Numbered from the stretch's first letter, positions 4,938 to 27,740 are shown. The stretch is DNA of 32,593 nucleotides from an uncultured bacterium (GCA_964506785.1 CAZDME010000009.1:1-32593); one strand, 5' to 3'. The notes: a model not told the origin generated them from the letters alone. Numbers and translations: made by a program.

Positions 4938-5001
4938 CGGGAGACGGCCAACGTAAGAAGAAAGAAGTAAATCTTCCGCTTCTGGTTTCCCATCTACCGT
5001 T
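4938..5001. repeat. Degenerate ~7-nt-period purine/pyrimidine inverted micro-array between pyrB and pyrC
   Basis: CGGGAGA-CGGCCAA-CGTAAGA-AGAAAGA-AGTAAAT followed by a pyrimidine-rich arm CTTCCGC-TTCTGGT-TTCCCAT-CTACCGT; the phase is imperfect. Confidence 0.35.
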
Positions 5002-5014
5002 TGCTAAAATTTCA

Positions 5015-5956
5015 CTATCTAACTTTCTTCAAATTAGTCCGCACCCCGGAGAGAATGTAAAGAATGGCCATGCGGATAGCCAAACCATTGGTTACCTGCT
5101 CCAGAATCACCGACCAGGGGCCGTCAGCTACCTCCGCATCCAATTCTATGCCGCGGTTAACCGGCCCGGGATGCATAATCAAACAGTCTTTTTTAAGCAA
5201 TTCCAACCTAAACCTATTAAGGCCAAAAAGCCGGACATATTCCCGGATAGAAGGGAAAAGACTCCTCTTCTCCCTTTCTTTTTGAATCCTTAAAAAATAA
5301 AGGATGTCGGCCTCTTTTATTACCTTCTCGAAATCATAGCTAATCTTAACCGGTAATTTCTCCACTTCACGGGGTAATAAAGTTGGCGGAGCGCAAAGAA
5401 TAACCTCGGCCCCCAGTTTAGTTAAGCCCCAAATATTGGACCGGGCGACCCGGCTGTGCAGAATATCACCAATTATGGCTACTTTCAAACCGGCAATCTT
5501 TCTTTTCTTTTCCCGAATGGTATAAAGGTCAAGCAAGGCCTGAGTGGGATGTTCATGGGCGCCGTCACCGGCGTTTATAATCGAAACATCGGTAAGGTTA
5601 GATAAAGAATAAGGAAAGCCGGATGAGGAATGCCGGATAACCATCATATCTACCTTAAAAGCCTCGATATTTCGAACGGTATCAAGGAGGGTCTCTCCCT
5701 TGACTAGCGAGCTGGATGAAGGAGAAAGGTTAATTAAATCAGCGCTGAGACGTTTGGCCGCCAGTTCAAAAGACATCCGGGTCCGGGTACTCGGTTCAAA
5801 AAATAAATTAGCGACGGTTTTCCCTCTTAAGGTCGGCACCTTCTTTATCGGGCGGGTGGAAATTTCTTTAAAAGAGCCGGCCGCATCTAAAATAAAGTTT
5901 ATTTCTTCCGGGTCCAATTCTTCCAGCCCGAGGAGATTTTTTCTTTTCCAAATCAT
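5015..5956 (-). CDS. pyrB: Aspartate carbamoyltransferase catalytic subunit
   Basis: [48 protein letters not shown]. Confidence 0.98.
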
Positions 5957-5958
5957 CT

Positions 5959-6510
5959 TTATATATCCTCTTTTTCCATAATTACCACTCTGTCTTCTCC
6001 GTCCACTTCTTTAAGACGGACCTCAACAATCTCCCGGGGAGCAGTAGGAATATTTTTGCCGACAAAATCAGCCCGGATCGGCAATTCCCGGTGGCCCCGG
6101 TCAATAAGAATGGCTAATTGAATTTCCCGGGGACGGCCGAAATCAACTAAAGCATCGAGGGCGGAGCGAATGGTCCGGCCGGTATAAAGGACGTCGTCAA
6201 CCAGGACTACCTTCTTCCCATTAATATCAAAAGGAATATCAGTCTTGTGAACTATCGGCTGGGAGGCAATAGCGGTTAAATCGTCCCGATAAAGGGTAAT
6301 ATCCAAAATCCCTAAAGGCAGGCGGCTCTTATCAATCTCGTTAATCTTTTTTACTATTCTCTCGGCAAGGAAAGCACCGCGGTTTCTAATGCCAATAATA
6401 GCCAGGTTAACACTACCTTTGTTTTTTTCCAAAATCTCGTGGGTGATTCTACTTAAAGTGCGGTTTAAAGCAGCGGCATCCATAACACCCGCTTTTTCCT
6501 TCCGGGCCAT
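5959..6510 (-). CDS. pyrR: Bifunctional pyr operon RNA-binding regulator / uracil PRTase
   Basis: [52 protein letters not shown] upstream. Confidence 0.98.
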
Positions 6511-6523
6511 ATTTTCCTCCTAA

Positions 6524-6664
6524 TTGGCTCATGGCTCATAACTCATGGCGAGTAGCTCAATTTAATTGTGTACTGAGTGATATGTTATGCGCACTGTTAA
6601 AGAAGGTAAAAATAAATATTGTGACTAAGAGCTATGAACAAAGAGCTAAGAGCCAAAAGAGCTC
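6524..6664. repeat. 7-nt-period inverted micro-array in the pyrR 5' leader
   Basis: Left arm GCTC/ACTC at 6527, 6534, 6541, 6555 (GGCTCAT units); right arm GAGC/GAAC at 6629, 6636, 6643, 6650 (plus 6659); AT-rich spacer of about 65 nt. Confidence 0.8.
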
Positions 6665-6676
6665 CTGGTTCATATC

Positions 6677-6760
6677 TCATATAAAAAAATAAAAAAAAAC
6701 GCCCACCCGGATAAATCCAAGCAGGCTATGATTTTTTGACAAGAAACTCGCTTTTCTCAT
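6677..6760 (-). CDS. Putative pyr leader peptide, 27 aa (MRKASFLSKNHSLLGFIRVGVFFYFFI)
   Basis: AAAGGGGA-tata-ATG at 6772-6758; open frame runs through the terminator hairpin and U-tract to TGA at 6679-6677; below the ORF-track size cutoff. Confidence 0.55.
   Translation of the reverse strand: MRKASFLSKNHSLLGFIRVGVFFYFFI
6683..6726 (-). terminator. Intrinsic terminator (attenuator) in pyr leader
   Basis: RNA GCCUGCUUGGA-UUUA-UCCGGGUGGGC (11 bp including G-U pairs) followed by G-U9-A-U7. Confidence 0.85.
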
Positions 6761-6767
6761 TATATCC

Positions 6768-6800
6768 CCTTTGTTAGCTTCACCGAGCTAACTTAAAAGG
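6768..6800 (-). promoter_or_regulatory. PyrR-binding RNA hairpin
   Basis: CCUUU-UAA-GUUAGCU-CGGUGA-AGCUAAC-AAAGG: CNGNGA hexaloop, UUUAA motif and CCUUU/AAAGG lower stem as in PyrR binding loops; lies upstream of pyrR. Confidence 0.88.
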
Positions 6801-6817
6801 TTTTAAAAGTTTGACAA

Positions 6818-6846
6818 ACTATACCATAAGATTTAAGCCCTGTCAA
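6818..6846 (-). promoter_or_regulatory. Sigma70-type promoter of pyr operon
   Basis: TTGACA (6846-6841), 17 nt, TATAGT (6823-6818) with TGn extended -10. Confidence 0.85.
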
Positions 6847-6849
6847 GAA

Positions 6850-8793
6850 TTATTTCAAAGGACTTCCTTCAAGACGCTTAATCTCCGCCCTTTCTTTATC
6901 CCTTAAATCCAACTCATCTAACTCAGCATAAATTTCCTCCAACCGGTAATGAGGAAAAAGTTCATTTTCACGTTTTAAGGAGGTTTTAAACTCAGCTATA
7001 GCCTCTTTAAACCTGCCTAAATCCCGGTAAAGGCAGCCTAAATTATAGTGAATCCGGGCATAGTCCGGGAACATTTTTTCTAAAGCCTGATATATCTTTA
7101 AAGACCTCTGATATTCACCGATAGCCCGGTAGCAATACCCCAATTTATAATAAGCGGGAAAAGAATAGGGATTGATTTTTTTTGCCTCTGAAAACTTTAT
7201 AATCGCCTGGTGAATATCCCCCTTTTCTAAGGCCTTTATCCCTTTTTTTAAAGCAACATCAGCCTGATAGGGCTTTAAAATCTTGAACGATAAAGGAAGA
7301 AATAAGACAACGGCTAAAGCGTAAAGCAAACCTTTTTTAACCGGCTTAAAAACGGGGAAAAACCTGTTTCTGAAAGTAATAAATCCTCTCCAGGAAGCCG
7401 GGACGGAGATTTCGGGATCGGATGCAATTATCCTTTTTACGGACACTGTCAGAGCGACCATTAACCAGAAAAAAACAGCAATTGCCGTCCAACGCAAAGA
7501 AGGAGAAAGCTGGCTATGCAATAAAATCCCGGCAGCCCCTAAAGTAAATGCCAAGGGATATTTTTTCCAGGCAATCGGGGCTTCCCGCCAGAGCTTTATA
7601 CCCAGGGATAAAAAAGCAAAAATTATCCAAAGAAACAAACCTAAACCCAGAAAACCCATCTCTATTGCTATTTCTAAAAATTCATTATGGGCATGGAAAA
7701 CAAGCGGGACAGGGATAATTCGAAGAGACTCAGCCGTCCGATATTGGGGGAAATAAATATGAAAAGCGCCAACCCCCCGGCCGGTAAAAGGGAAAGCCTT
7801 AATCATCTGCCAACCGCTCATCCAGAGATTTTCTCTTATAGCCATTGAAATATTGCCCGGAAAAAGAAATTTTTCTACGGAAGTAGAACTCTCTTTGGGC
7901 TCCTCAGCAAAAGAGGAATCTTCTTCTTTTAAAAACTTTTTGATATCTAAAGTCTTGATTTGCAAACGGTCTTTTCTTAAAACCTCCCTTAAAGCCTGGG
8001 AGTAAATCGTTACTGAATATAATCCGCCGACAAGCAAAAAAGGCAAAAGGGCTGAGATAAAACTTTTTACAAATTTTTTCTTGCGCCAAAAGTTCACAAC
8101 GCTACCGATATATAAAACCGCTAAATAGAAAATCAGAACCAGCCAGGCTCCCTGGCTGCGGGTCAAAAGCAAGGTTATTGCCAGCAGCATAGAAAGAAAA
8201 AACAGGGCTGCCTTCTCAAATTTAAAGTGAGAATAAAGAAAAAGAGAGAAGCTTAACGGAATGACAGCCAGGAGATAGCTGGCAAAAAAATTAGGATTGC
8301 CGAAGAAATGGAAGTAAACGGGGACGTTCCAGAAATCGAGCCTTAAGAAGGTGATACTTTTATAGAGGCTGAAAAGGCAGATTGCTCCGGCGGTAATTAG
8401 AATGCCCTGCGCAAGGAAACGAATCTCCCTTCTTTTTTTAATATTTTCGGCAACTAAAACAAAAAACAGAAAATAGCCGAGAATGGAAAGAAAAACTTGA
8501 AAGCTGGCGTATTTATATGCAGAAAAACAAGCAGAAAGGAAAGCGTAAAGAAGGAATAAACCAAAGGGGAGAATAATGGGATTCCCTGGGATTTTGATAA
8601 ATTCAGACCGGATAACCTTTAAAAGCCAGACAAATAAAAGAAAGCTCAAAGAAAGCTTGAAAAAAACCGTCTTAATTAAAACCAGATGAAACGACCGCCC
8701 GCTAAAAAGGAAAGGTAAGGCAGTTACAACAAAAAACAGCCCCCAGAAAATGATTTTCCTATAGGCTTCTAAATTCCTGCCATTCGCCGTCAT
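6850..8793 (-). CDS. O-antigen ligase-like (Wzy_C) polytopic membrane protein with C-terminal TPRs; candidate pilin O-oligosaccharyltransferase
   Basis: Many hydrophobic segments; FGNPNFFASYL, LTRSQGAW, R..LW...WQMIKAFPFTGRGVGAF, HAHNEFLEIAIEMG motifs; TPR-like repeats (AYYKLGYCY, IHYNLGCLY). Confidence 0.8.
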   Translation of the reverse strand: MTANGRNLEAYRKIIFWGLFFVVTALPFLFSGRSFHLVLIKTVFFKLSLSFLLFVWLLKVIRSEFIKIPGNPIILPFGLFLLYAFLSACFSAYKYASFQVFLSILGYFLFFVLVAENIKKRREIRFLAQGILITAGAICLFSLYKSITFLRLDFWNVPVYFHFFGNPNFFASYLLAVIPLSFSLFLYSHFKFEKAALFFLSMLLAITLLLTRSQGAWLVLIFYLAVLYIGSVVNFWRKKKFVKSFISALLPFLLVGGLYSVTIYSQALREVLRKDRLQIKTLDIKKFLKEEDSSFAEEPKESSTSVEKFLFPGNISMAIRENLWMSGWQMIKAFPFTGRGVGAFHIYFPQYRTAESLRIIPVPLVFHAHNEFLEIAIEMGFLGLGLFLWIIFAFLSLGIKLWREAPIAWKKYPLAFTLGAAGILLHSQLSPSLRWTAIAVFFWLMVALTVSVKRIIASDPEISVPASWRGFITFRNRFFPVFKPVKKGLLYALAVVLFLPLSFKILKPYQADVALKKGIKALEKGDIHQAIIKFSEAKKINPYSFPAYYKLGYCYRAIGEYQRSLKIYQALEKMFPDYARIHYNLGCLYRDLGRFKEAIAEFKTSLKRENELFPHYRLEEIYAELDELDLRDKERAEIKRLEGSPLK

Positions 8794-8798
8794 GAAAT

Positions 8799-10304
8799 TT
8801 AGGCTGCCGGGACGAAATTGATAACTTCCCGATGGAGCTTTTCGTTTTCCCGGATAAATATTTTTTTCCGGAAGCGGCGGGAAATTATTTTAATTTCATC
8901 CTGTTTTTCAGCATTGAGATATTTAGCCAGCTGGGGGTGAAGTTCAATGTAAATTTTCGCTTCTTTAGTTTGAGCGGCGTATTCTTTCACCTTTCGCAAA
9001 ACCAGCAAACCCATAGTGATGACCGTCTTTATTCTCCCTTTACCGCGGCAGTAGGGGCAGGGCTCCTCAACGACTTCAGCCAGGCTTTCCCTCACCCGCT
9101 GGCGGGTCATTTCGACTATTCCGAATTGGCTGATGTTTAAAACCTTGGTTTTGGCCCGGTCTTTTTTTAAAGACTCTTTTAAACATTGTTCCACCTTCTG
9201 GCGGTTTTTAGAAGAAATCATATCGATAAAATCAATAACAATAATCCCGCCAATATCACGGAGACGAAGCTGCCGGGCAATCTCCCGGGCAGCTTCTAAA
9301 TTGTTTTTGAGAGCGGTTTCTTCCAGGTTTTTCTTGCCTTTAAAGCGGCCGCTATTAACATCAATGGCTAGAAGCCCCTCAGTCTGCTCAATAGTAATAT
9401 AACCGCCGGATTTAAGCCATATCTTGGTTTCGAAGATTTTTTCAATTTCTCTTTCCAAATTGAACGCGGAAAGCATCGGTTTCCTGCCGCGATAAAGCTC
9501 GAGCCGGGACCGAAACTGCGGGGCCAAGAGATTTATAACCTTCCTTAAACGCTGATACAAAGGTTTCGAATTAATAACCAATTTTTCCACATCTTCGACC
9601 AGCAAATCTCTAATTACCTTGGAGGGCAAATCCAGTTCCTGGTGTAAAAGTTTGGGATGGGCGATTCTTTTAGAATTTCTTTGAATCTTCTTCCAGAGAT
9701 GGAGAAGATATTTTATATCCCCTTTAAAATCCCTGGGGCTTTTATTTTCGCCTTCGGTTCGAACAATAAAACCGAAATTTTTAGGGGTAATAGTTTCAAT
9801 TATTCCTTTAAGCCTCTTTCTTTCTTCAGGCTCTACAATCTTTCTGGATATACCGATTCCTTCCAATCCGGGCATGAGAACCAGAAACCGGCCCGGAATA
9901 GAAATATATGTAGAGAGCCGTACCCCTTTCTGGCGGTGTGATTCCTTTATCACCTGAACTAAAATTTCATCGCCTGCCTTGAGCTCTTTGTCCAGAGAGT
10001 GGGTATTTTTTTTTCTTCTCCTGAAACTGCCGACTTTCTCTCCCTGGAGTATCCTTTTGAATATTTCTTCATCAGCGCCGGTCAATAAATCGGAATGGTG
10101 AAGAAAACCGCTCCGGCCCAAACCAACATCGACAAAAGCGGCTTCGATACCCGCATGGATGTTCTCCACCCGGCCTTTATAAATGTTGCCGACAACATCT
10201 TTATCCTTTTCTCTTTCCAGATAAAGCGCCTCTAAAACCTTATCCTCAAGAATAGCTACCAAAGTTTCTTTTTCTTCATGGCTAACGACGATAATTTTCC
10301 CCAT
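8799..10304 (-). CDS. rng: Ribonuclease E/G family endoribonuclease (RNase G-sized, no C-terminal scaffold)
   Basis: S1 domain GNIYKGRV...AAFVD, IDVNSG, RLRDIGGIIVIDFIDM, EMTRQR, CPYC Zn-link. Confidence 0.9.
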   Translation of the reverse strand: MGKIIVVSHEEKETLVAILEDKVLEALYLEREKDKDVVGNIYKGRVENIHAGIEAAFVDVGLGRSGFLHHSDLLTGADEEIFKRILQGEKVGSFRRRKKNTHSLDKELKAGDEILVQVIKESHRQKGVRLSTYISIPGRFLVLMPGLEGIGISRKIVEPEERKRLKGIIETITPKNFGFIVRTEGENKSPRDFKGDIKYLLHLWKKIQRNSKRIAHPKLLHQELDLPSKVIRDLLVEDVEKLVINSKPLYQRLRKVINLLAPQFRSRLELYRGRKPMLSAFNLEREIEKIFETKIWLKSGGYITIEQTEGLLAIDVNSGRFKGKKNLEETALKNNLEAAREIARQLRLRDIGGIIVIDFIDMISSKNRQKVEQCLKESLKKDRAKTKVLNISQFGIVEMTRQRVRESLAEVVEEPCPYCRGKGRIKTVITMGLLVLRKVKEYAAQTKEAKIYIELHPQLAKYLNAEKQDEIKIISRRFRKKIFIRENEKLHREVINFVPAA

Positions 10305-10344
10305 AATTAAACTCCTTAAAAAAATCCACCCAACAGCCCTGTAT

Positions 10345-10438
10345 ACACGGATTCCAGAAACTCCCTATAGCTCGGCCGGCGAAAAGCGCGGCAAAATTGC
10401 CTGCCGGCACAGGGGCAGGCCGGGATTTTAATCCGTGT
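10345..10438. repeat. Nested inverted repeats between pilQ and rng
   Basis: ACACGGATT (10345-10353) / AATCCGTGT (10430-10438) enclosing GCCTGCC-N8-GGCAGGC (10399-10420). Confidence 0.7.
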
Positions 10439-12868: not shown

Positions 12869-12885
12869 ATTTCTTTCCTTCTTAC

Positions 12886-13491: not shown

Positions 13492-13552
13492 TGGCCTTTC
13501 CTTTACCCCCGCCCTTTCCGATAAGGTTAAATATTTCCGGGCGGGAAATAGA

Positions 13553-14212
13553 TTATTTCAGCCTGCAGGCTAATTCAAAATCCATAGCATCCTGCTCTTG
13601 AATGACCTTTCTCTGGGTAAAAATCAATTCTATATCAGAGAAATCTTGAAAAAAATCTTTATCGTCCTTAAGGCTGGTCATAAACTTTCCCACCGAATCA
13701 ATCATCTCTTCACCGGAGAGCGAAATAACCGTCCCTTTAAGAATTATAGTTTGAAAACTTTTTTTAACCCAGGCCACTTGAGAAGCCTCTTTTTTCTTTC
13801 TTCCCTTCCTGGGATCGGGTTTGACCGGCACCTTTACTTTTTCAGTCCGGGTGGTTATATTAAAATCAGCCAGCCAAATAGAAGGGAGAACCTGTCTGCT
13901 CAGTTGATAAAGCTTCCTTGACCAAAGAAGCCTGCTCTGGGCTAAATCCTCTATGGCCTTCTTTTTGCCGTCTAATTCTACCCTAAGCACCTCCAGTCCC
14001 AAAACTTCCTTCTCTTCTTTTCTAATTACATCCCATTCTTTATTTAAACGGCTAAATCTTGCCGATTGAACTTTTACCTGGACACCTAAAACCAAAGAGA
14101 TAACCACAATAATAACCAGCACCCCGACGGCTATGCAAAGAAGCGTCAGAATGTAGGTATTAAATTGACGTTTTCTCTTTAATTCTTCCGGAAGAAGATT
14201 TATTTTTATCAT
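13553..14212 (-). CDS. pilN: Type IV pilus assembly protein PilN
   Basis: Start re-assigned to ATG 14212 (MIKINLLP, the PilM-binding INLLP motif), ATGA overlap with pilM stop; TM, coiled coil, LPSIWL. Confidence 0.9.
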   Translation of the reverse strand: MIKINLLPEELKRKRQFNTYILTLLCIAVGVLVIIVVISLVLGVQVKVQSARFSRLNKEWDVIRKEEKEVLGLEVLRVELDGKKKAIEDLAQSRLLWSRKLYQLSRQVLPSIWLADFNITTRTEKVKVPVKPDPRKGRKKKEASQVAWVKKSFQTIILKGTVISLSGEEMIDSVGKFMTSLKDDKDFFQDFSDIELIFTQRKVIQEQDAMDFELACRLK

Positions 14213-15291
14213 ATAACTTCTAGAGCCCGAAGAGCTAACCCTGTCCCCACACATAAATAAGGCCGGCTGGCTTGGAGATTTTCTTCAGAGAAACGCTTGT
14301 CTATCTTGAAGTTTTTAAATGGATCCCAGCAGGAAACAGGCGAATCTAATATTCTACCGAAGAAATTTTCAATCCCTTTAAGTTTGGCCGTCCCACCGCT
14401 TAAGAAAACCTTAAAAGGCATTTTTTCTACGGCCATGGTCTGGCTTTCGTAATAATCAAAAGAACGCCGGATTTCATTAGCCAGGCTTTCCAATACCGGA
14501 GAAATAGATTCAAAAGACGGGGAAGATTCCCCCTCTATCTTTTCTTTTAACCTTTCCGCCTGTTTAAAAGCAACGTTCAGCCTTTTTGAAATACCGTCGG
14601 TAAGATTGTTCCCCCCCATAGGAATATCCCGGCTGAATTTAGGAATCCCCTTATTTAAAATGCTTACATTGGTGAGACTTGCCCCTATATTGACTAAAGC
14701 GGTCGCCTGGTGAAGATTTGCCTCTTCGTTATTGGCATAAAGAAAAGCATTAATCAAGGCAAAAGAATCAACATCGATTATAACCGGCTTTAAACCCTGA
14801 CTTTCCAGAAGTTCGATATGTTTCTGGATAAAATTACGCTGGGCAGCCACCAGTAAAACCTTCATCTTTTTGCTTTCCTGGTTCTTGGCCTGGTCTAAAA
14901 CTTGAAAATCTAAAATTACATCTTTTAAATCAAAAGGAATGTGGGGCTTGGCCTCAAACTTTACCGCGCTTTCTAAATCGTTTTTAGACATTTGAGGAAG
15001 GTCTATATAACGGACAACTACCGCCGGCCCGGATATTCCGGTAACTACTTCATTATTGGCCAAATTAGCTTTGGCCACGGCCCGCTTCAAGGCTTCACTC
15101 AGGGCATCGCCTGCTTTTCCCTCTTTAACCGGCTCTTCGGAAATCGGCTCAATAAAAAATCTATCTACAAGAAAACCCTTATCTCCCTTAGATATACAGA
15201 CTATTTTTATGCTATTAGTGCCAATATTAAGGCCAGCAGCAACACCGGACCTTAAAGATTTCCTGAAAGGTAGATTGGGTAATTTTAGCAT
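14209..15291 (-). CDS. pilM: Type IV pilus assembly protein PilM (actin-like)
   Basis: GLNIGTNSIK, EAKPHIPF, VLLVAA, IDVDSFALIN, VNIGAS, GGNNLT, LSGGTAKL, GLALR. Confidence 0.95.
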   Translation of the reverse strand: MLKLPNLPFRKSLRSGVAAGLNIGTNSIKIVCISKGDKGFLVDRFFIEPISEEPVKEGKAGDALSEALKRAVAKANLANNEVVTGISGPAVVVRYIDLPQMSKNDLESAVKFEAKPHIPFDLKDVILDFQVLDQAKNQESKKMKVLLVAAQRNFIQKHIELLESQGLKPVIIDVDSFALINAFLYANNEEANLHQATALVNIGASLTNVSILNKGIPKFSRDIPMGGNNLTDGISKRLNVAFKQAERLKEKIEGESSPSFESISPVLESLANEIRRSFDYYESQTMAVEKMPFKVFLSGGTAKLKGIENFFGRILDSPVSCWDPFKNFKIDKRFSEENLQASRPYLCVGTGLALRALEVI

Positions 15292-15909: not shown

Positions 15910-15982
15910 TAGGTGATAGGCTATAGGACGTAGGTTATAGGTCCTTCCCCTACTGCCTATTACCCAACCAACCTACTACCTA
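15910..15982. repeat. 7-nt-period inverted micro-array between pilin 4 and pilin 5
   Basis: TAGG at 15910, 15917, 15924, 15931, 15938; CCTA/CCCA at 15949, 15956, 15963, 15972, 15979. Confidence 0.88.
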
Positions 15983-16416
15983 TTATAAAGAACATGGTCA
16001 TCCCAGCTGTCTGCGCTGTCATTCGTGCCAATATCACAAGTAGGTAAATTATCAGTGTTGTCAATGGTGTAGTTACCGCCCGAGGGACACCTGGGCTCTG
16101 TCTTTAAAAAAGCCGGAACTAAATCTGACATCTCCGCTTCGTCCCAACGCCCCACATCCATAGCTACCGCCCATCTTTCCTTCGCCCCTTCTATCTCTTT
16201 AAGATTGGCGATACAAGCTTTAGCTTTGGCTTCTTCCCGGGCCCGGACATAATACGGGGCGACTATCGCCGCTAAAACCCCGATAATCAAAACCACTATC
16301 ATTATCTCAACCAGGGTAAACCCTTCTTTAGCGTATAGCAAATATCGTATAGCGTTTAGTAACCCTTTTTTAACTCCCTGTGTTTTGTTTCTTCCCGTTA
16401 ACTCTTCTAAAGGCAC
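15976..16416 (-). CDS. Type IVa pilin 4 (extended leader)
   Basis: KEG|FTLVEIM, P22, hydrophobic alpha1; GGAGGT SD before GTG start. Confidence 0.9.
   Translation of the reverse strand: MPLEELTGRNKTQGVKKGLLNAIRYLLYAKEGFTLVEIMIVVLIIGVLAAIVAPYYVRAREEAKAKACIANLKEIEGAKERWAVAMDVGRWDEAEMSDLVPAFLKTEPRCPSGGNYTIDNTDNLPTCDIGTNDSADSWDDHVLYNR
16319..16367. repeat. Five heptamer units flanked by a 7-bp direct repeat within the pilin 4 leader
   Basis: AACCCTT (16319-16325), CTTTAGC GTATAGC AAATATC GTATAGC GTTTAGT, AACCCTT (16361-16367). Confidence 0.85.
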
Positions 16417-17664: not shown

Positions 17665-17671
17665 ATCTATT

Positions 17672-18919
17672 TTATCCCACCAGCTGAACCATTCTAAATA
17701 TAGGCAGGAACATGGCTATGGCCATAGAGCCAACAACAATGCCTAAAAAAGCAATTAAAACCGGCTCAATCAAAGAAGTCAGGCCGGAAATGGCCGCTTC
17801 AACCTGGGTATTGTAAAAATCAGAGATTTTAGCCAGCATCGTCTCCAATGCCCCGGTTTCTTCCCCCACGGCAATCATCTCTACCACCATCGGCGGGAAA
17901 ACCTTGCTTTCCTTCAAAGGGATAGCAATATTTTCCCCCTCCCTGATGCCCAATCGAGCCCGCTCGATATCCCTCTCAATAACTTTATTTCCTGAGGTCC
18001 GGCCGACAATCTCTAAGGCCAAAAGTATCGGCACCCCCCCCTTAAGCAAGGTGCTTAAAGTTTTGGAAAATCTGGACATGGCTAACTTTTGCAGCAAAGG
18101 CCCAAAAATGGGTAGACGTAGTTTGAACTGATCGAATTTTAAACGCCCCTGCTCAGTGTGAATGGCCCGGCTGCCAATAATGAAAATCAGCACCAGGGCG
18201 ATAAAAGCATATAGAAAATGTTTCTGCATAAACTCACTTGTGAAAATGAGTACCTGGGTCGGCTTCGGCAAAGTGGCTTCCAACCCGGTAAAAATGGTTT
18301 TAAAAACCGGCACTACTTTAAGAAGAAAAACCAGGGTCACCACCACCGCCATGCCGCTAACAACGGCCGGATAAACTAAAGCCATTCGCACCTTTCTTCT
18401 CATCGCACTCATAGATTCCAGATAATTAGCCACTTCATTCAGAATAATGTCTAACATACCGCTGACCTCCCCGGCGCGAACCATACTGACAAAAAAAGGA
18501 GAAAAAGTCCGGGGATGATTAGCCAGGGCTTCAGATAAACTTAAACCCTTCTCCACATCCTCTTTCACCCGGTGAATTACCCCGGCCAAAACCTTATCTT
18601 CAATCTGTTTCTCCAGAATAAACAAACCCTGCACCAGAGGTAACCCGGCATTAACCATAGTGGCTAACTGCCGGGTGAAAATTACCAGGCTGTCTAATTT
18701 TACCTTCTTTTTACCCAGAGACGAGCCGAAAGAAGCAGGCCCTTTTTTACTCTTCGAGGAAAAAGGCAAGGTGAAACCTTTGCCTGCCTGCTGGCAGGAA
18801 ATCAAAATATAACCCTTGCTGTGTAGAATTTTATTTAAGGTTTCTTCGTTCTCGGCTTCCTGCTGATTTTCAAAACGATGTCCGTTTTGGTCAATAGCCG
18901 TATAGCGAAATAAAGACAT
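17672..18919 (-). CDS. pilC: Type IV pilus inner-membrane platform protein (GspF/PilC)
   Basis: FTRQLATMVNAGLPL, MVRAGEVSGML, ALVYP, LPKPTQ, MIAVGEETGAL, LIEP, AMFLPIF. Confidence 0.96.
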   Translation of the reverse strand: MSLFRYTAIDQNGHRFENQQEAENEETLNKILHSKGYILISCQQAGKGFTLPFSSKSKKGPASFGSSLGKKKVKLDSLVIFTRQLATMVNAGLPLVQGLFILEKQIEDKVLAGVIHRVKEDVEKGLSLSEALANHPRTFSPFFVSMVRAGEVSGMLDIILNEVANYLESMSAMRRKVRMALVYPAVVSGMAVVVTLVFLLKVVPVFKTIFTGLEATLPKPTQVLIFTSEFMQKHFLYAFIALVLIFIIGSRAIHTEQGRLKFDQFKLRLPIFGPLLQKLAMSRFSKTLSTLLKGGVPILLALEIVGRTSGNKVIERDIERARLGIREGENIAIPLKESKVFPPMVVEMIAVGEETGALETMLAKISDFYNTQVEAAISGLTSLIEPVLIAFLGIVVGSMAIAMFLPIFRMVQLVG

Positions 18920-18941
18920 TTTTTACCTTTCTTCCCTTTTG

Positions 18942-18993
18942 CTTATTTCGTTTTTACGAAATAAGGTGATAACGAAATAACGAGATAACGGGT
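18942..18993. repeat. Perfect hairpin plus 8-nt-period micro-array between pilB and pilC
   Basis: CTTATTTCGT-TTTT-ACGAAATAAG (10-bp stem, 18942-18965); units ACGAAATA AGGTGATA ACGAAATA ACGAGATA ACGGGT from 18956. Confidence 0.8.
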
Positions 18994-20691
18994 TTAAGCC
19001 GTTACCCTTAGAATCTCTTCTAAGCTGGTGGTGCCGTCTTTTACCCTTCGCAAACCACACTGCCTGAGAGGAACCATTCCTTCTTGAATCGTCTTATTTT
19101 TTACGTCCACCTCGGGAGCGCGTTGAACAATCATATTTTTTATTCCCTCGGAAAGAGAGAAGGCTTCCACCACGGCAAACCTGCCCCGATAGCCGGTGTT
19201 GCTGCAACGCGGGCAGCCCCGGGGACGGTAAAGGACTAAATCCTTGCCGCCTTCTTTTTTAAATCCGTACTTATCCATAATTTCCGCTGAGGCCTTATAG
19301 GATTCCCGGCAATCAGGACAAAGTTTACGAGCCAGCCGCTGGGCCATAACACAAACCAAAGAAGAAGCAATGAGAAAAGGCTCCACCCCCATATCGATTA
19401 AACGGGTTATCGCCCCAACAGCATCGTTGGTATGCAAGGTGCTGAAAACCAAATGCCCGGTCAAACCGGCTTTAATGGCCACATCGGCCGCTTCACCGTC
19501 ACGGATCTCCCCGACAAGAATAACATTCGGCGCCTGGCGGAGAATAGAGCGCAGTCCGCTGGCAAAGGTAAGGCCGATATCCTGATTAATCTGAATCTGG
19601 TTAACTCCGTCTAATAGATATTCAACCGGGTCCTCGACAGTAATAATGTTTTTATCCGGGGTGTTTATTTTGGATAAGGCCGAATAAAGAGTGGTTGTCT
19701 TTCCGCTGCCAGTCGGGCCGGTAACTAAAATTATCCCGTAAGGATGAGTTATTGCCTCAGAAAAAGTTCCGTAAGGTTCTTTACTAAAGCCGAGTTTGGC
19801 CAAATCTAAAGTCAAACTTGCCTTATCGAGAATTCTTAAGGTTACCCGTTCGCCAAAAGCGGTCGGGATGATGGCTACCCGGAAATCAACTTCCCGGCCA
19901 GCGACTTTTATTTTAAACTGCCCGTCTTGAGGCAAACGACGCTCGGCAATATCCAGACGAGATAAAATTTTTATCCGGGAAACAATCGCCGGCCGAAGCT
20001 GCTTGGGAGGAGAAATCGTTTCGTGTAATACCCCGTCAATACAATAGCGAACCCTTACCTTGTCCTCAAAAGGCTCAATGTGAATATCGCTGGCTTTCTT
20101 TTTGACCCCTTCACCCAGAATCAAGTTGACAATTTTAATAACCGGGGCTTCCTCGACTTCTTTCATTAACTGGTCAAGATCGAGTTTTTCTTCAGCCGTC
20201 GGGGCGGCAACCACATTCAAATCAGCCCCTTTTATCGCATCCTCCATCGTCCCCCAAGGGGTATAATATTTGCTTATGGCGTCAAGAATCTCCTCGCTGG
20301 TAGTAATTATCGGGTCAATGTTATACCCGGTCATTACCTTGATATCGTCCATAGCAAAGATGTTCAAAGGATCGGCCATAGCTACAGTTAAGGTTTTCCC
20401 CACTTTTGATACCGGAATTAACTGGTAGTGCCGGGAAACATGTTCGGGAACAATTTTTAAAACTTCGGGATTGATTTTATACCGGCTTAAATTTATCGGC
20501 GGGATATTAAGATGCTGGCTTAAACAGGCAAGCAAATCCTTCTCGCTAATAAAACCCAGTTTAATCAGAATCTGGCCTAACCTTCCCCCCTCTTTATCCT
20601 GAATCTCAAGGGCCTTTTTCAACTGTTCCTTGGTAATTACCTTCCCTTCAATCAATATTTCGTTTAGCCTTTTACGCAGCGACCTAACCAT
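18994..20691 (-). CDS. pilB: Type IV pilus extension ATPase with MshEN-like N-terminus
   Basis: ASDIHIEP, RRLPQDG, Walker A GPTGSGKTT, TVEDPVEY, VILVGEIRD, His boxes TGHLV/STLHTN, Zn motif CPDC...CPRC. Confidence 0.96.
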   Translation of the reverse strand: MVRSLRKRLNEILIEGKVITKEQLKKALEIQDKEGGRLGQILIKLGFISEKDLLACLSQHLNIPPINLSRYKINPEVLKIVPEHVSRHYQLIPVSKVGKTLTVAMADPLNIFAMDDIKVMTGYNIDPIITTSEEILDAISKYYTPWGTMEDAIKGADLNVVAAPTAEEKLDLDQLMKEVEEAPVIKIVNLILGEGVKKKASDIHIEPFEDKVRVRYCIDGVLHETISPPKQLRPAIVSRIKILSRLDIAERRLPQDGQFKIKVAGREVDFRVAIIPTAFGERVTLRILDKASLTLDLAKLGFSKEPYGTFSEAITHPYGIILVTGPTGSGKTTTLYSALSKINTPDKNIITVEDPVEYLLDGVNQIQINQDIGLTFASGLRSILRQAPNVILVGEIRDGEAADVAIKAGLTGHLVFSTLHTNDAVGAITRLIDMGVEPFLIASSLVCVMAQRLARKLCPDCRESYKASAEIMDKYGFKKEGGKDLVLYRPRGCPRCSNTGYRGRFAVVEAFSLSEGIKNMIVQRAPEVDVKNKTIQEGMVPLRQCGLRRVKDGTTSLEEILRVTA

Positions 20692-21160
20692 CTTTTTTTT
20701 CCTCTCCGTTTGATTTTCTGTAATTATCGTCGAGCGCCTTTGAAATCTCTCTGGAAGTGGTAATGAAAATTTCTATATTAGCGCCGGTAAGCTTTTCCAT
20801 TTCCTCAACGACATTGATATCTAAAGGGTTAACCATGGCTAAGGTAAGAATGTTCCCTATCTTGTCAACCGGTATAAGCAAATTTTTACGGGCGGTATCC
20901 TCCGGGATAAGTTTGAGAACTTCCCGGTTAATGGAATAATTCTCTAAGGGTAAATAGGGAAAACCGTATTGAACCATGATGCAGTTGACGATATCTTCTT
21001 CAGCCGCATAGCCAAGTTTTACCAAACATTCGCCTAAAAAACCCCCGGCTTCTTTCTGCATATCCAAAGCCTTTTCCAACTGCTCCTCAGTAATAACCTT
21101 CTCCTCCAGAAGCAGGCGGCCTAATTCTTTCTTTACCAGTTTTTTTAAATGTTCAATCAT
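20684..21160 (-). CDS. Stand-alone PilB/GspE N-terminal domain protein (MshEN-like plus N1D), no ATPase
   Basis: Collinear with the adjacent PilB N-terminus (LIPVDKIGNILTLAMVNPLD vs LIPVSKVGKTLTVAMADPLN); 8-nt overlap with pilB start. Confidence 0.88.
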   Translation of the reverse strand: MIEHLKKLVKKELGRLLLEEKVITEEQLEKALDMQKEAGGFLGECLVKLGYAAEEDIVNCIMVQYGFPYLPLENYSINREVLKLIPEDTARKNLLIPVDKIGNILTLAMVNPLDINVVEEMEKLTGANIEIFITTSREISKALDDNYRKSNGEEKKDG

Positions 21161-21203
21161 TTCCTTAACTCTTAGAATTCGAAAAATCAGATAAGATAGT
21201 TTC

Positions 21204-21231
21204 TTCCGTCCTCTACCTTCTGTCTTCTATT
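21204..21231. repeat. 7-nt-period micro-array at pilT 3' end
   Basis: TTCCGTC CTCTACC TTCTGTC TTCTATT; the last unit contains the pilT stop codon. Confidence 0.65.
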
Positions 21232-22300: not shown

Positions 22301-22341
22301 TTTTTACCTCATTTTATAAGGGCCTACGTCCGTTCTTAATT

Positions 22342-23334: not shown

Positions 23335-23400
23335 TTCCCCCTCCTTTTTTAAAACGCCTCTCTCTATCAGGCAGGCGTAAATCTCCAGTAATACACAGTA

Positions 23401-23823: not shown

Positions 23824-23825
23824 GT

Positions 23826-24986
23826 TCAGGCTTTCCTTCCCGGAAGAAATTCCACCGGCTCGGTTAAGAAAAATTCCTTTTTTAAAATCCAATTTTTTAA
23901 AATTTCACAAATCTCCCGCGCCTTAAAATAGCTGGAAAGAGAAGTCGTGGGGACATCCTTCCCTTTTACCCTAATCTTTCCCGACTTTAGCTCCTGGTAA
24001 TTTACCTCACCTAAAATCCGGCCGGTCCCCTGAGGATAATCACGGCTGTAATCGACTACCTGCGTCCAGATATCGGCGTCTTTCACCGCGGCAAATTTAA
24101 TTACCTCTTCGTCTAAAACCGGAAGAGGAATACCAATACCGACGGTGAGAGTAGCCCCATAACCGAGGAAACTGGCACCCACCAGCCATTTATCGCTCAT
24201 TCCCTTTAGATCGCCTTTAACGGATAATGTCCCCGCAGGAATATACGGAACCCCGTTTTTCTTTCTGGCTTCCCGGGGAGAATGCTGGGTGCCCGGGCCA
24301 ACAACATAACCTATTCCTCCGCCAAGAAAAATCCTGGTTCCCAGCCCAACCGTTCGATAATAAGGGTCATTCAGTAAAGGGGAAAGCTGTCCGGCACTGC
24401 AATAACTGGCGCTGCCTAAGTTGGGCTTTAGCATTCCCATATAGGTATAGATAATTTTATCGGAAAGATTGACGGCGCAATTATAGTTCTGATAGGCATT
24501 GCGGGGATTGAAAAGAAAAGCTTCGCTCATTTCCTTTAAAGAAATTTCAGTCTCAAGTGTATCCAGAGGATAACAATCCGTGCGGCAACCAATAGCTTTA
24601 AGTTTTACCTTTTTGCCAGCGACCAAATCTTCAATAACATGCCCGCCTCCATATCTAAATTCTCCCGGATAAATTCTGTTAGCCGGATCAGTCGTGACTA
24701 ATTCAGTTACCCCGATATAGACATCAACGGCAGCCAGGCCGCAATAAACAGGCACATCATTGAGCCAGGCCCTTTGCATTTTCGTTTTAGGCCTGGTATG
24801 CCCCAGACAGAGAAAAGCCCCTGAGGAACACATCGGCCCAAAGGTAGCCGTGGTAACCACGTCTACTTCCCGGGCAACCCGGGCCGTTCCTTTCTTCTCA
24901 ACCAGGTCGATAATCTCCTCGGCGTTAACGACTACCGCTTTACCCTCTTTTATTTTCTCATTAATCTCGGCGATGGTTCTAATCAT
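23826..24986 (-). CDS. DUF39 homocysteine biosynthesis protein (L-aspartate semialdehyde sulfurtransferase, MA1821/MJ0100-like), lacking CBS domains
   Basis: RTIAEINEKI, DVVTTATFGPMCSSGA, YGGGHVIEDL, TDCYP, NPRNAYQNY, SAGQLSPLLNDP; paired with NIL-ferredoxin. Confidence 0.9.
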   Translation of the reverse strand: MIRTIAEINEKIKEGKAVVVNAEEIIDLVEKKGTARVAREVDVVTTATFGPMCSSGAFLCLGHTRPKTKMQRAWLNDVPVYCGLAAVDVYIGVTELVTTDPANRIYPGEFRYGGGHVIEDLVAGKKVKLKAIGCRTDCYPLDTLETEISLKEMSEAFLFNPRNAYQNYNCAVNLSDKIIYTYMGMLKPNLGSASYCSAGQLSPLLNDPYYRTVGLGTRIFLGGGIGYVVGPGTQHSPREARKKNGVPYIPAGTLSVKGDLKGMSDKWLVGASFLGYGATLTVGIGIPLPVLDEEVIKFAAVKDADIWTQVVDYSRDYPQGTGRILGEVNYQELKSGKIRVKGKDVPTTSLSSYFKAREICEILKNWILKKEFFLTEPVEFLPGRKA

Positions 24987-24994
24987 ACTGCAAA

Positions 24995-25765
24995 TTACCT
25001 TCTTTTTAGTTTTTTGACGATTAATTCAGCCACCCTTTTCCCGGAGAGAAACATTCCGCCAAAAATAGGGCCCATCCGGGGAGAGCCAAAAACCGCATTG
25101 GCGGCCATCCCGGAAACAAAAAGACCAGGGAAAATTTCCCTGGCATTCTTGACTACGGCAGATTCGGCCGGGTCAACCCACATCGAACCCTCACCGATAA
25201 TCTTTCCCTTCGGTGTTTTTAATCTTCCCACTTTGCGGGAGACTAAAGAGCTGACTTCGGCCGGATGACCGGTAGCATCGAGAACTATCTCCGATGATAA
25301 AGCTATCGGGTCAATATGATACTCGCCTTGATTTACCAACGTCCAGTTAACAACCACACCAGCCAGGCTTTTTTTCCTAATAACCACGTCTTCAACGGTA
25401 ATACCGTTAAAAATTTTTGCCCCCCGGTCTATGGCCGCCGCGGTCAATTTTGCCGCCGTCTCAATGGCATCAGCAATCAATAACCCTTCTTTAGTCTTAA
25501 ACTTAATTTCGAACTTTTCTAAAATAGGCCCGGCTTTCTTTCCCAAAACAATCCGGGGATACATCATCCCACCGCCCCAGATACCGCCGCCAAGACTAAA
25601 TTTTTTCTCTAATAAAAGAACATTAATCTTCTTCTCGGCCAAAAAACTAGCCGCCACTAATCCCGAAGGCCCTCCGCCGACAATAATTACCTGGCTGACG
25701 AGAGACCCTAAAAAATCGTCAATGCTGGAATTAATGATATGATAACTTATTCTTGTCTCAAGCAT
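24995..25765 (-). CDS. thi4: Sulfide-dependent (non-Cys) adenosine diphosphate thiazole synthase
   Basis: GGGPSG, GGGIWGGGM, VVNW, HIDP, DATGH, PRMGPIFGGMFLSG. Confidence 0.93.
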   Translation of the reverse strand: MLETRISYHIINSSIDDFLGSLVSQVIIVGGGPSGLVAASFLAEKKINVLLLEKKFSLGGGIWGGGMMYPRIVLGKKAGPILEKFEIKFKTKEGLLIADAIETAAKLTAAAIDRGAKIFNGITVEDVVIRKKSLAGVVVNWTLVNQGEYHIDPIALSSEIVLDATGHPAEVSSLVSRKVGRLKTPKGKIIGEGSMWVDPAESAVVKNAREIFPGLFVSGMAANAVFGSPRMGPIFGGMFLSGKRVAELIVKKLKRR

Positions 25766-25810
25766 AATAAGAAAGAGGCCTTCTAAATGTATCAGAGCAA
25801 TATAGGTAGT

Positions 25811-25839
25811 ATTAAAACATATATACAGCTTTGTGTCAA
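25811..25839 (-). promoter_or_regulatory. Sigma70-type promoter of the thi4-DUF39-NIL/Fer unit
   Basis: TTGACA (25839-25834), 17 nt, TTTAAT (25816-25811) with TGn. Confidence 0.65.
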
Positions 25840-25950
25840 GAAATTTAAAGGCAACCGGCTTTAAACCTATGAGCGCAAAGAGAAAAGAGACATCGACACT
25901 TGGTTTGTTAAAAAATAAATTCTAATGAGGAGAAAATGCGGAAGGGGTTA

Positions 25951-27675
25951 TTATCGTTTGAATTTCTTCTCTAATTCTTTCCAGGTAAGTTTGATGGCCG
26001 TGGGGCGGCCGTGGGGACAATTAAAGGGCTGTTCGGCCTTTTTCCAATCTTGGATTAAAGCGGTCATCTCCTTTTGGCTTAATTTATCCCCCCAGCGGAC
26101 GGCCGAATGGCAGGCAATAAGCTGGTAAATCTTCTCCTCGGGGAAAGAAACAGACATATTTTTGAACTCATCCAAAAGATCATAAACCAGGGGCTTGGGA
26201 TCAGCTTTTTTAAAGATTGCCGGCAGGGCGCGGATGATAAAAGTCTGGCCGCCAAAAGGCTCGATTTCAAAACCCAAATTTCCCAAAGAAGGGATAACCT
26301 TCTTTAAAAGAACCGCTTCCTCAGTTGACACCTCCATTTTAACCGGGATAAGAAGACTTTGCACCGAGAGGCTCTTTTTCTCTTTAAGCCGGTCAAAAAG
26401 AATGCGTTCGTGGGCGGCATGCTGGTCAATGATAAAAAGGGCCTCTTCATCATGATAAATAATGAAACTTTTTTTAATCTGAAGACAAGTGCCGACGGGT
26501 AAATCATCCGAAGAAGGCAAAGCCGGGGCTAATTCCTCTTTAACCAGATACTGGTTAATGGCCTCTTTAATCCCCTCTTCTCTATGGTGAGTTTTTTTCT
26601 CTCCATAGGAGGTCTCCGAGGGGAAAAATGCTTCAGCTTCTTTTCCCTTTTCTTCTTCGGTGACAACAATCCGGGGGATGGGTTCTGATTCTTTCAAGAT
26701 TTTTCTGGTTATTTCGCCAAGTAAATCGTGAATTAAACGGCTGTTTTTAAAACGGGCCTCCCTTTTGGTGGGATGGATATTGACATCGACTTCGCCCGGA
26801 GGAACCTCCAGAAAAATTATCGCCGCCGGCATCCGGCGGGGCTCAAGAAAGGTATGATAGCCCTGGATAAGGCCGTGAGATAACGAAGGCGAGGCAATCC
26901 ATCTTTTATTTACATAGAAGAAAAGATAATTGCGGTCGAGGCGGCTGTAAGCGGGCTTGGCGATAAAACCGGAAATTGAAACCCTGGGATTTTGAAATTT
27001 TAGAGGAATGAGCTCGCCGGCTAAATCCTTACCTAAAAGCTGGCCGATTCTCCGGGTGAGATTACCGGTTTTTAAAGCTTTAATAATCTCCTTTTTATTC
27101 TGCCGGAGAGAAAAGGAAATCTCCGGATGAGATAAGGCCTCCCGGGTGAAAATCTGATGGATATGGGAAAGCTCGGTCGTATCGGCCTTTAAGAATTTGC
27201 GGCGGGCGGGAAGGTTATAAAAAAGATTTTTTACCTCGACCGTCGTCCCCTGGGGAAAACCTAGTTTTTTGAAGGATATTTTTTTCCCGCCGTGAATATT
27301 CAATTCTGACCCCAGGGTTTCGCCCTTTGGGGCGCTGGTCAGTTTGAATTGGGAAACGGCCGAGATACTGGCTAAAGCCTCTCCGCGAAAGCCCAGGGTA
27401 GAAATATTTTCTATATCCTCAAAGAAAACAATTTTACTGGTGGCGTGCCTTTGACCAATAAGTTTTAGGTCATCCGGATTAATGCCCAGGCCGTTATCAG
27501 AAAGACGAATAAGGGTTTTGCCTCCCCCTTCTATCTCTACCTTAATATCAGAACTTCGGGCATCGATGGAATTTTCTATCAGCTCTTTTACCACCGAAGC
27601 GGGACGCTCCACAATCTCTCCGGCGGCAATGCGGCTGGCAACTTTGTCGGGCAGGATTTTAATATTATTCATCAT
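25951..27675 (-). CDS. mutL: DNA mismatch repair endonuclease MutL
   Basis: IAAGEIVERPASVVKELIENSIDA, GFRGEAL, DVNIHPTK; endonuclease motifs DQHAAHE, ACH, CPHGRP; clamp motif QSLLIP. Confidence 0.98.
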   Translation of the reverse strand: MMNNIKILPDKVASRIAAGEIVERPASVVKELIENSIDARSSDIKVEIEGGGKTLIRLSDNGLGINPDDLKLIGQRHATSKIVFFEDIENISTLGFRGEALASISAVSQFKLTSAPKGETLGSELNIHGGKKISFKKLGFPQGTTVEVKNLFYNLPARRKFLKADTTELSHIHQIFTREALSHPEISFSLRQNKKEIIKALKTGNLTRRIGQLLGKDLAGELIPLKFQNPRVSISGFIAKPAYSRLDRNYLFFYVNKRWIASPSLSHGLIQGYHTFLEPRRMPAAIIFLEVPPGEVDVNIHPTKREARFKNSRLIHDLLGEITRKILKESEPIPRIVVTEEEKGKEAEAFFPSETSYGEKKTHHREEGIKEAINQYLVKEELAPALPSSDDLPVGTCLQIKKSFIIYHDEEALFIIDQHAAHERILFDRLKEKKSLSVQSLLIPVKMEVSTEEAVLLKKVIPSLGNLGFEIEPFGGQTFIIRALPAIFKKADPKPLVYDLLDEFKNMSVSFPEEKIYQLIACHSAVRWGDKLSQKEMTALIQDWKKAEQPFNCPHGRPTAIKLTWKELEKKFKR

Positions 27676-27686
27676 TCACTCCTCTT

Positions 27687-27740
27687 AAGAAATCAGATGA
27701 CAGATGTCAGAAAAATCTGTTTTCTGTCATCCGTCTTCTT
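27687..27740. repeat. 7-nt-period inverted micro-array between mutS and mutL
   Basis: AAGA/CAGA at 27687, 27694, 27701, 27708; TCTG/TCCG/TCTT at 27716, 27723, 27730, 27737; overlaps the mutS stop codon. Confidence 0.85.

Follow-up and report, generated by a model that had tools for sequence, protein, structure and literature searches.

Degenerate, often inverted heptamer arrays in the spacers of an uncultured bacterium keep their place and geometry while the repeat unit is replaced

The 32,593-nt stretch of DNA considered here (the window; positions 1–32593 of CAZDME010000009.1, assembly GCA_964506785.1, from an uncultured bacterium) carries seven loci at which short units of 7 or 8 nt recur in tandem, mostly at gene junctions and in part as facing, complementary arrays. 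The gene order opens with miaB, a TPR/SPOR protein, mutS, mutL, thi4, a homocysteine-synthesis pair, and a GGDEF protein. A type IV pilus cluster follows (pilT, an MshEN protein, pilB, pilC, five prepilins, pilM-N-O-P, and the secretin gene pilQ), and the last part holds RNase G, an O-antigen-ligase/TPR protein, and the pyr operon with pyrR first. All 32 substantial open reading frames (ORFs) lie on the minus strand, and the 14 spacers between them amount to 1567 nt, or 4.8% of the window. The 32 proteins were scanned against Pfam. Rfam 15 at gathering thresholds returned no match over the whole window, in which no tRNA or tmRNA gene was found either. The repeat loci are listed below, with the arrays called by Tandem Repeats Finder (TRF) at a score of at least 30.

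4938..5001, minus strand: pyrC-pyrB spacer, weak stretch of period 7; p = 0.022 for its best 4-unit window; no TRF row.
6523..6559, no strand assigned: arm 1 of the pyrR leader, five TGGCTCA-type heptads seen in a phased print; TRF 6525–6549, period 7, 3.6 copies, 77% matches.
6622..6664, no strand assigned: arm 2 of the pyrR leader, five to six GAGCTAA-type heptads; TRF 6625–6653, period 7, 4.1 copies, 72% matches.
15910..15944, no strand assigned: pilin junction arm, TAGG five times at exact 7-nt spacing (CCTA on the mRNA strand); TRF 15910–15942, 4.7 copies, 69% matches.
15945..15982, no strand assigned: opposite arm of the pilin junction, CCTA-rich on the plus strand (TAGG/UAGG on mRNA), irregularly spaced and not strictly 7-periodic.
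16326..16360, minus strand: heptads in a prepilin leader peptide, GCTATAC-type on mRNA; window 16327–16359 scores 0.67 at period 7.
18942..18965, minus strand: perfect 10-bp hairpin that closes the 8-mer array, found by folding; arm test z about −2.6.
18949..18993, minus strand: pilB-pilC octamer array, about four 8-nt units, CGTTATYN on mRNA; TRF 18956–18990, period 8, 4.4 copies, 74% matches.
18983..19007, minus strand: 9-pair hairpin from the terminator-like scan, with the pilB stop codon in its loop and the first 8-mer unit as its 3′ arm.
21197..21231, minus strand: single-armed heptads running from the pilT stop codon, TTCCGTC/TTCTGTC on the plus strand; period 7 p = 0.018.
27687..27740, no strand assigned: mutS-mutL hairpin with CAGA/TCTG cores at 7-nt spacing, spanning the mutS stop; p = 0.014.

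All seven loci that a sequence-only reading of this DNA had picked out are present where it placed them, and their periodicity exceeds that of composition-matched controls. With the 14 intergenic regions pooled and compared with 1000 dinucleotide shuffles, a period of 7 gives z = 5.14 for the sum of the best 4-unit windows and z = 5.07 for lag identity, and none of the shuffles equals either value. Periods of 8 (z = 1.4 and 2.0) and 9 (z = 1.7 and 2.8) are marginal, as is a period of 4 on the best-window sum alone (z = 1.8, p = 0.04), and periods of 3, 5, 6, and 10–12 are not significant on either measure. Mean lag-7 identity is about 0.32 (0.322–0.325) in the spacers versus 0.243 in the genes, and the maximum over 300 sets of length-matched coding segments, 0.274, lies below the spacer value. 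Period-7 windows that score at least 0.62 number 26 in the small intergenic fraction versus 9 in coding DNA. When the seven loci are masked, the remaining 1055 nt of intergenic DNA have no lag-7 excess (z = 0.65), which indicates that the sequence-only reading had caught essentially all of the signal.

Support for the individual loci is uneven. Period 7 reaches p < 0.05 in 6 of the 14 regions, loci taken one at a time are marginal at best (regional p values from 0.006 to 0.08), and the stretches at 4938–5001 and 21204–21231 have no supporting structure. These points would suit a signal that is nothing but chance low-complexity sequence in AT-rich spacers. The pooled z of 5.1, its specificity for period 7, coding controls that never reach the intergenic value, and the arm complementarity of the pyrR leader described below all speak against chance, which was already disfavored and which we consider very improbable indeed.

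The arrays are decayed rather than clean, as the TRF rows have 69–77% matches between units and no row was returned for 27687–27740, 16326–16360, or 4938–5001. As in long simple-sequence repeats, head-to-tail units of 5–11 nt are nonetheless present (period 7 at 6525, 6625, and 15910; period 8 at 18956), in excess over composition and enriched outside genes. Three arrays had been described as overlapping stop codons, and those of mutS (27727–27729), pilT (21227–21229), and the pilin (15976–15978) do so; with pilB, the number of arrays at or across a stop is four. The description of the loci as lying at gene junctions applies to all but 16326–16360, which is inside ORF 15976–16416. Comparison within the window shows no unit shared between any two loci, as expected from the earlier statement that no single dispersed family of repetitive extragenic palindromic (REP) sequences links them. 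The array hairpins are without U tails, unlike intrinsic terminators, and the strong terminator-like sites of the window (15472–15446 and 6726–6701) lie away from the arrays.

Three loci had been thought to carry facing, complementary arms. Regions were folded against 60 shuffles, and the duplex energy of the arms was compared with that of 500 shuffled arms on each strand. The clearest case is the pyrR leader, where the two arms, about 100 nt apart from start to start, form a duplex of −34.0/−33.6 kcal/mol (z = −4.7/−4.4) and none of the 500 shuffled arms is as good on either strand. At mutS-mutL, the region folds with z = −3.9 (sense) and −4.75 (antisense), and 7 (plus strand) and 2 (minus strand) of 500 shuffled arms do as well. 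For the pilin junction the proposal holds in part: the region folds better than its shuffles (z = −3.1 sense, −2.1 antisense), but 132 and 66 of 500 shuffled arms pair as well as the real ones. The loci at 16326–16360 and 21204–21231 are single-armed and that at 4938–5001 is weak, all as had been proposed. No hairpin signal was found at 4938–5001 (fold z = −0.6; 37 and 167 of 500 shuffled arms as good) or at the pilT locus 21197–21231 (fold z = +0.8), for which TRF reports 21203–21229 at a period of 14 with 1.9 copies.

The pyrR-leader array sits downstream of a PyrR attenuator, and about 4 nt separate the end of its arm 1 from the pyrR ribosome-binding site. The neighboring features are these.

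6693..6804, minus strand: PyrR-binding attenuator, RF00515, E = 3.5e-6 over the full length of the model, 50.9 bits (gathering score, 54).
6726–6701, minus strand: pyr attenuator terminator from the terminator scan, reliant on G-U pairs.
6846–6818, minus strand: promoter-like site, the best in this region, TTGACA and TATAGT 17 nt apart, TG-extended, 11/12 matches.

The RF00515 match was the sole result of a permissive scan over 6450–6900, and it adjoins the array rather than lying within it. A complete pyr attenuator (promoter, PyrR site, and terminator) occupies 6693–6846 on the minus strand, with about 180 nt from the terminator to the pyrR start, a distance longer than in Bacillus. A further promoter-like site (TTGACA-16-CATTAT, 6736–6763, plus strand, 10/12 matches) is antisense within the attenuator and points away from the array; it may merely mirror the palindromic sequence of the attenuator. 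Within the pyr operon, a flavodoxin gene (3099–3587, minus strand) stands between pyrC and pyrK.

Comparison with a relative shows what persists at these sites and what does not. Using PilC as the query, a genome scan gathered 80 comparison loci, for 81 sequences with the window. The best PilC match, at 79% amino acid identity, comes from a Candidatus Ratteibacteria metagenome-assembled genome (MAG), here L001, of which 11.4 kb were compared; PilC of the remaining 79 loci, which belong to other phyla, is no more than 50% identical. In blastn, L001 and the window pair over pilC, the pilins, pilM-Q, and RNase G, leaving the spacers and the pilin leaders unaligned. L001 has arrays at the same places as the window with unrelated units, except that the pilB-pilC array is absent from it. 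Upstream of the last (putative major) pilin, the window has 7-nt TAGG/CCTA arms, and L001 has facing 9-nt ACAGGATTT/AATCCTGT arrays about 150 nt apart. Location and geometry persist between the two genomes; the unit, and even the period, do not.

The pilB-pilC spacer, significant at period 8 (p = 0.002), measures 74 nt in the window versus 19 nt in L001. The difference is a 45-nt block that contains the octamer array and directly follows an unchanged stop codon. Five Thermodesulfobacteriota-type MAG loci with nearly identical PilB C termini have pilB-pilC spacers of 4, 75, 199, 273, and 359 nt, and over 74 loci, spacers upstream of pilC have a median of 24 nt. The junction therefore shows presence/absence or replacement among relatives. 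The 3′ half of the perfect hairpin (18957–18964, minus-strand mRNA) is complementary over 8 nt to pilC codons 3–5 (UUAUUUCG, about 18904–18911), such that array units could compete with the start region for pairing, a possible translational switch. Directly upstream of pilB, and overlapping its start, lies the stand-alone MshEN-domain protein (20684–21160, minus strand).

In the prepilin genes, the repeats enter coding sequence. The opposite arm of the pilin junction reaches into the last codon and stop of pilin 15976–16416. This ORF has a GTG start behind a GGAGGTGA box and an N_methyl motif at residues 31–52, so that the heptads at 16326–16360 code for a portion of its 32-residue leader, whose final residues K-E-G precede F-T-L-V-E. 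Its ortholog in L001, pilin E, has degenerate GGACTGT-type heptads where the window has GCTATAC-type ones. Three paralogs of pilin E in L001 carry perfect arrays (ACTGTGG x4.4 with 100% matches, ACTGTGG x2.7, and GGACTGT x3.7), all in frame and inside annotated prepilin leader peptides. The perfect tracts, at 1949–1979, 2617–2635, and 3286–3311 of L001, read L-W-T-V-D-C-G in long leaders. Gain or loss of one unit would shift the frame, making these genes candidate phase-variable pilins. In the window, ACTGTGG has 2 matches against 0.9 expected, both within genes. In the same cluster of the window, a 233-residue ORF between pilM and pilO (13553–14254, minus strand) has no Pfam match and is probably PilN by position.

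These observations raise the possibility that the arrays of the type IV pilus cluster are contingency loci, in which one heptad gained or lost shifts the frame (7 mod 3 = 1) or alters a junction and so switches pilin genes. The perfect, in-frame tracts that three to four paralogous prepilin genes of L001 carry in their 5′ coding part, the location of four of the seven window loci in the pilus cluster, and the pilin-leader position common to both genomes would all fit. The window tract itself is degenerate, with just two perfect copies that are not adjacent, and so falls short of the perfect tract expected of a phase-variable locus and seen in ACTGTGG x4.4 of L001. A protein search for copy-number variants of the heptamer-encoded leader gave L001's own two proteins alone, and the pyrR, pyrC-pyrB, and mutS-mutL arrays would be left unexplained. 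In addition, the heptamer repeats surveyed by Rehm 2015 are not tied to surface genes (PMC4692102). We attach little probability to the contingency-locus interpretation.

Other elements are shared between the two genomes. The window mutS-mutL element resembles a nonorthologous stretch of L001, 11262–11395, located after RNase G (Smith-Waterman p = 0.027). That region of L001 (11278–11392, downstream of RNase G) forms a long hairpin (−40.3 kcal/mol, z = −3.15) in which ACAGATG-type motifs at irregular spacing stand opposite ATCTGTG-type motifs, with the same core as the window hairpin. A GC-rich palindrome of the type CCTGCC..GGCAGG occurs in both genomes as well, at 10400–10413 of the window and at 1826–1848, about 3262–3285, and about 3747–3775 of L001, where it is found once in a spacer and twice in pilin leader coding sequence beside heptads. 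The RNase G-pilQ spacer of the window matches the L001 sites at z about 4, and the palindrome looks like a small dispersed REP-like element. A TCYGTC core shared by the mutS and pilT stops was considered and rejected: its 21 occurrences in the window are no enrichment over the 16 expected, and the apparent excess of the 10-mer TCYGTCTTCT (11 versus 4.0 expected) is inflated by overlaps inside two arrays and by purine-rich codons.

The same geometry appears in other phyla. The window is fourth in lag-7 excess among the 41 sequences that offer enough non-ORF DNA, and several Thermodesulfobacteriota-type MAG loci have similar ranks. Of the filtered TRF arrays in the 81 sequences (205 in all), 22 are accompanied, at no more than 250 nt, by a reverse-complement partner that scores above every one of 40 shuffles. 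Such partners belong to 6 of 19 non-ORF arrays of period 7 and 4 of 8 of period 8, versus 0 of 16 period-7 arrays in ORFs. Facing arrays were seen in Ratteibacteria-like, Thermodesulfobacteriota-type, Desulfuromonadales, Omnitrophota, Binatia, and Acidobacteriota loci, and as all loci were chosen via PilC, their recurrence at pilus junctions is partly an ascertainment effect. In one locus, L048, the pilB-pilC spacer has 35-nt arms of GATACTG-type heptads that are 91% complementary; in another, L013, it has ATYCTGR heptads. The TAGG and GCTCA arrays of the window were each absent from all 80 comparison loci. The GATACTG array of L048 recurs with about 60 nt of flank, inverted, 4.6 kb away (91 nt, 93% complementary). 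This segment (9582–9672 and 14312–14402) adjoins a 150-nt direct copy of 77% identity (9664–9813 and 14431–14580) with GTCATTCCCGCGCAGGCGGGAATCC-type hairpins, so that the two together make a composite dispersed repeat.

Such a recurrence could indicate that the facing arrays are small nonautonomous mobile elements, similar to REPINs or MITEs (miniature inverted-repeat transposable elements), with inverted ends of short tandem subrepeats, several families to a genome, inserted at operon junctions and then decayed. Besides the L048 array with its flank at two sites, this proposal could account for the empty and filled pilB-pilC alleles of the window, L001, and the Thermodesulfobacteriota-type relatives, and for the likeness of the mutS-mutL element to a nonorthologous site in L001. 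It also draws on Geobacter metallireducens, in which related paired sites number 8 to 24 per class and insertion sequences lie at a fixed distance from class 1 sites (Aklujkar 2009, PMC2700814), and the L013 unit, from another phylum, fits the class 3 consensus of that genome, MTYCTGA. No two window loci have any sequence in common, however, and although inverted arms are present as in MITEs, inspection of the boundaries at the pyrR leader and at pilB-pilC revealed no target-site duplication. One array is in frame within a coding leader and others begin inside conserved last codons; to place seven loci within 32 kb, numerous families would have to be present at high density; and Geobacter, according to the supplement, conserves the outer ends of its tandem repeats but not their interiors, unlike typical MITEs (PMC2700814). 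None of the 32 window proteins has a Pfam match to a transposase or to a REP-associated tyrosine transposase (RAYT). We consider dispersal of this kind unlikely, though not far-fetched.

The sequence-only reading had gone further, proposing footprints or empty sites of a mobile or templated-synthesis system, and for this no supporting evidence emerged, as reverse transcriptase matches are likewise absent from the 32 proteins (0/32). The link that it drew to four-helix-bundle (bAvd/IVS-like) genes is not supported either: there is no such Pfam match in the window proteins, and no relevant literature was found. Nor does the window resemble a diversity-generating retroelement, as it has neither of these protein types by Pfam and no long direct repeat pair. 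Its alternative suggestion, periodic RNA duplexes within polycistronic mRNAs, gains nothing from strand asymmetry, tested as a sign of selection at the RNA level. Thirteen facing-array hairpins lie beside genes whose direction is known; the better-folding strand is sense in 6 of them and antisense in 4, and the two strands are equal in 3. The symmetry thus looks like a property of the DNA and not one selected on mRNA.

A regular register of short cores invites the idea of a reader. Ribbon-helix-helix repressors bind contiguous heptad or octad boxes, and the arrays could be sites for a multimeric protein that reads a 7–8-nt register, either in DNA (ribbon-helix-helix-like or IHF/HU) or in RNA (a repeat-binding attenuation protein). 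The 4-nt cores set exactly 7 nt apart, with free spacers between them (TAGG five times, CAGA/TCTG, GCTC/GAGC), would fit such a protein. So would the interpretation that the authors gave of the Geobacter pairs, a guess at sites for global regulators of the IHF/HU type (Aklujkar 2009, PMC2700814), and a Nostoc preprint in which deletion of heptamer repeats reportedly altered reporter activity (10.1101/2022.06.06.494920). On the other hand, at least five unrelated cores within 32 kb would need as many proteins, no candidate gene for one was found among the window proteins in the Pfam scan, the units are not conserved at orthologous sites in L001 despite its PilC identity, and the cleanest register, TAGG, is on the antisense strand. 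A dedicated binding protein is therefore improbable in our estimation.

The geometry of these arrays is not new: it has been in print for G. metallireducens since 2009, a precedent that the sequence-only reading missed. The paired sites of G. metallireducens lie on opposite strands at variable distance and fall into classes of four octanucleotides (24 pairs), three 8–9-nt units (21), and five heptanucleotides (8), with one heptanucleotide pair located between proB and proA (PMC2700814). The window resembles this genome in having 3–5 tandem units of 7–9 nt per site (supplements S8 and S9) and several unit classes in intergenic DNA, also within operons, and the pyrR-leader element, with 5 and 5–6 heptads about 100 nt apart, has the Geobacter architecture, in which the spacing is about 70–160 bp (PMC2700814). 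It differs in that the arms at mutS-mutL and at the pilin junction are adjacent, the loci at 16326 and 21204 are single-armed, and fewer than 15 nt separate the arms in two window hairpins. The window units match none of the three class consensus sequences; the TCYGTC core that the window has in common with class 2 is the one found above not to be enriched. Within the 32 kb of the window, no unit is used at two loci.

Unpaired relatives of these repeats are also on record. In the survey of long simple-sequence repeats by Mrazek 2007, heptamers are reportedly the commonest unit length in prokaryotes; heptanucleotide repeats are overrepresented in intergenic DNA and sporadic across phyla, and slippage has been proposed as their origin (via PMC4679880, PMC4692102). 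The window shares the tandem 7-nt units of this type, but its tracts are short (4–5 units), degenerate, and often inverted pairs. Those described by Rehm 2015 occur between aligned ORFs, mostly at most 50 bp from a stop codon and sometimes overlapping it (PMC4692102). The GGGNATC-type repeats of Xanthomonas and Nostoc share this placement near or over stops with the window, and a preference for about four units, but are G-rich and quadruplex-forming with one unit family per genome, whereas the window units are not of the G-tract kind and differ by locus (PMC4692102). Cyanobacterial tandem heptanucleotides, mentioned in the same paper, are another intergenic case. The TAACTGA direct repeats of marine Beggiatoaceae are likewise intergenic heptamers of 2–6 copies, some overlapping the end of the upstream ORF, but with one dominant unit per genome, mostly on the sense strand and ending a few nucleotides from a start codon, with 1 of 170 sets inverted (MacGregor 2015, PMC4679880). 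REP, BIME, and REPIN sequences are intergenic inverted repeats in operons that form mRNA stem-loops, with doublets on opposite strands, as in the window. REPs, unlike the window loci, have a genome-wide consensus and a RAYT gene. Among the papers listed for "Ratteibacteria," none deals with repeats, as judged from titles and the openings of abstracts.

Taken together with this record, we tentatively favor, with somewhat less than even confidence, the explanation that the loci are small, partly decayed simple-sequence repeats of the heptamer class, made and remodeled by slippage in unconstrained DNA, where they build or extend inverted repeats. The arrays occupy the few weakly constrained stretches of a tightly packed, one-strand gene region, namely spacers from the stop codon onward, the interval from the pyr attenuator to the pyrR ribosome-binding site, and the cleaved-off prepilin leader. 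Replication slippage may create and resize units of 7–8 nt. Both arms of an inverted repeat that contains or adjoins such a tract could turn periodic, through selection for pairing or through strand-switch copying. The product would be an inverted repeat at the DNA level and also an imperfect stem-loop in the polycistronic mRNA, which might affect mRNA stability, processing, or translational coupling between cistrons.

Slippage of this kind is consistent with several of the observations above. If units are born, drift, and are soon replaced, position and geometry will recur where sequence does not, and such fast replacement argues against a fixed sequence-specific reader and suggests that the cause is mutational or structural. 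We also count in favor of slippage that enrichment at period 7 stays within noncoding or weakly constrained DNA. The perfect tracts of L001 have the look of live, slippage-prone tracts, versus the 69–77% matches of the window, and the occurrence of perfect tracts in one genome beside decayed ones in the other fits a cycle of birth and decay driven by slippage.

Other results weigh against slippage as the origin of the loci. The window arrays hold too few perfect adjacent copies for efficient slippage today, and the protein search described above revealed no copy-number variants. The loss of the lag-7 excess upon masking shows that the signal resides in discrete elements rather than in a diffuse bias of mutation. 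The idea that flanking sequence served as template for the pilB-pilC insert was not supported: reverse-complement matches are not significant (p = 0.44 and 0.28), and the insert has a weak direct match to pilC codons 3–6 (p = 0.022, one of four tests). The inverted L048 repeat and the resemblance of the mutS-mutL element to a nonorthologous L001 site both favor dispersal.

A broader interpretation would treat paired heptad and octad arrays as one class of element across uncultivated phyla, defined by geometry and independent of sequence, that time and again settles at the same operon junctions (for example, pilB-pilC and the spacers near pilin genes). Such elements could be spread by an enzyme that recognizes the subrepeats in their inverted ends, or a conserved host factor that adjusts expression between cistrons could read them in a register of 7 nt. 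This is a speculative idea to which we give only slight credence.

Overall, the feature belongs to a catalogued, unexplained type of repeat, ordinary though understudied. Heptamer-biased spacer repeats have been noted since 1990 (according to the reference list of Rehm 2015, PMC4692102) and again in 2007, with paired versions following in 2009. The window adds a candidate phylum to the list of heptamer-repeat carriers, and together with L001, it provides a clear case in which unit sequences turn over at sites that hold their position and geometry. The finding would become more important if genome-wide data showed multicopy families or copy-number switching in pilin genes.

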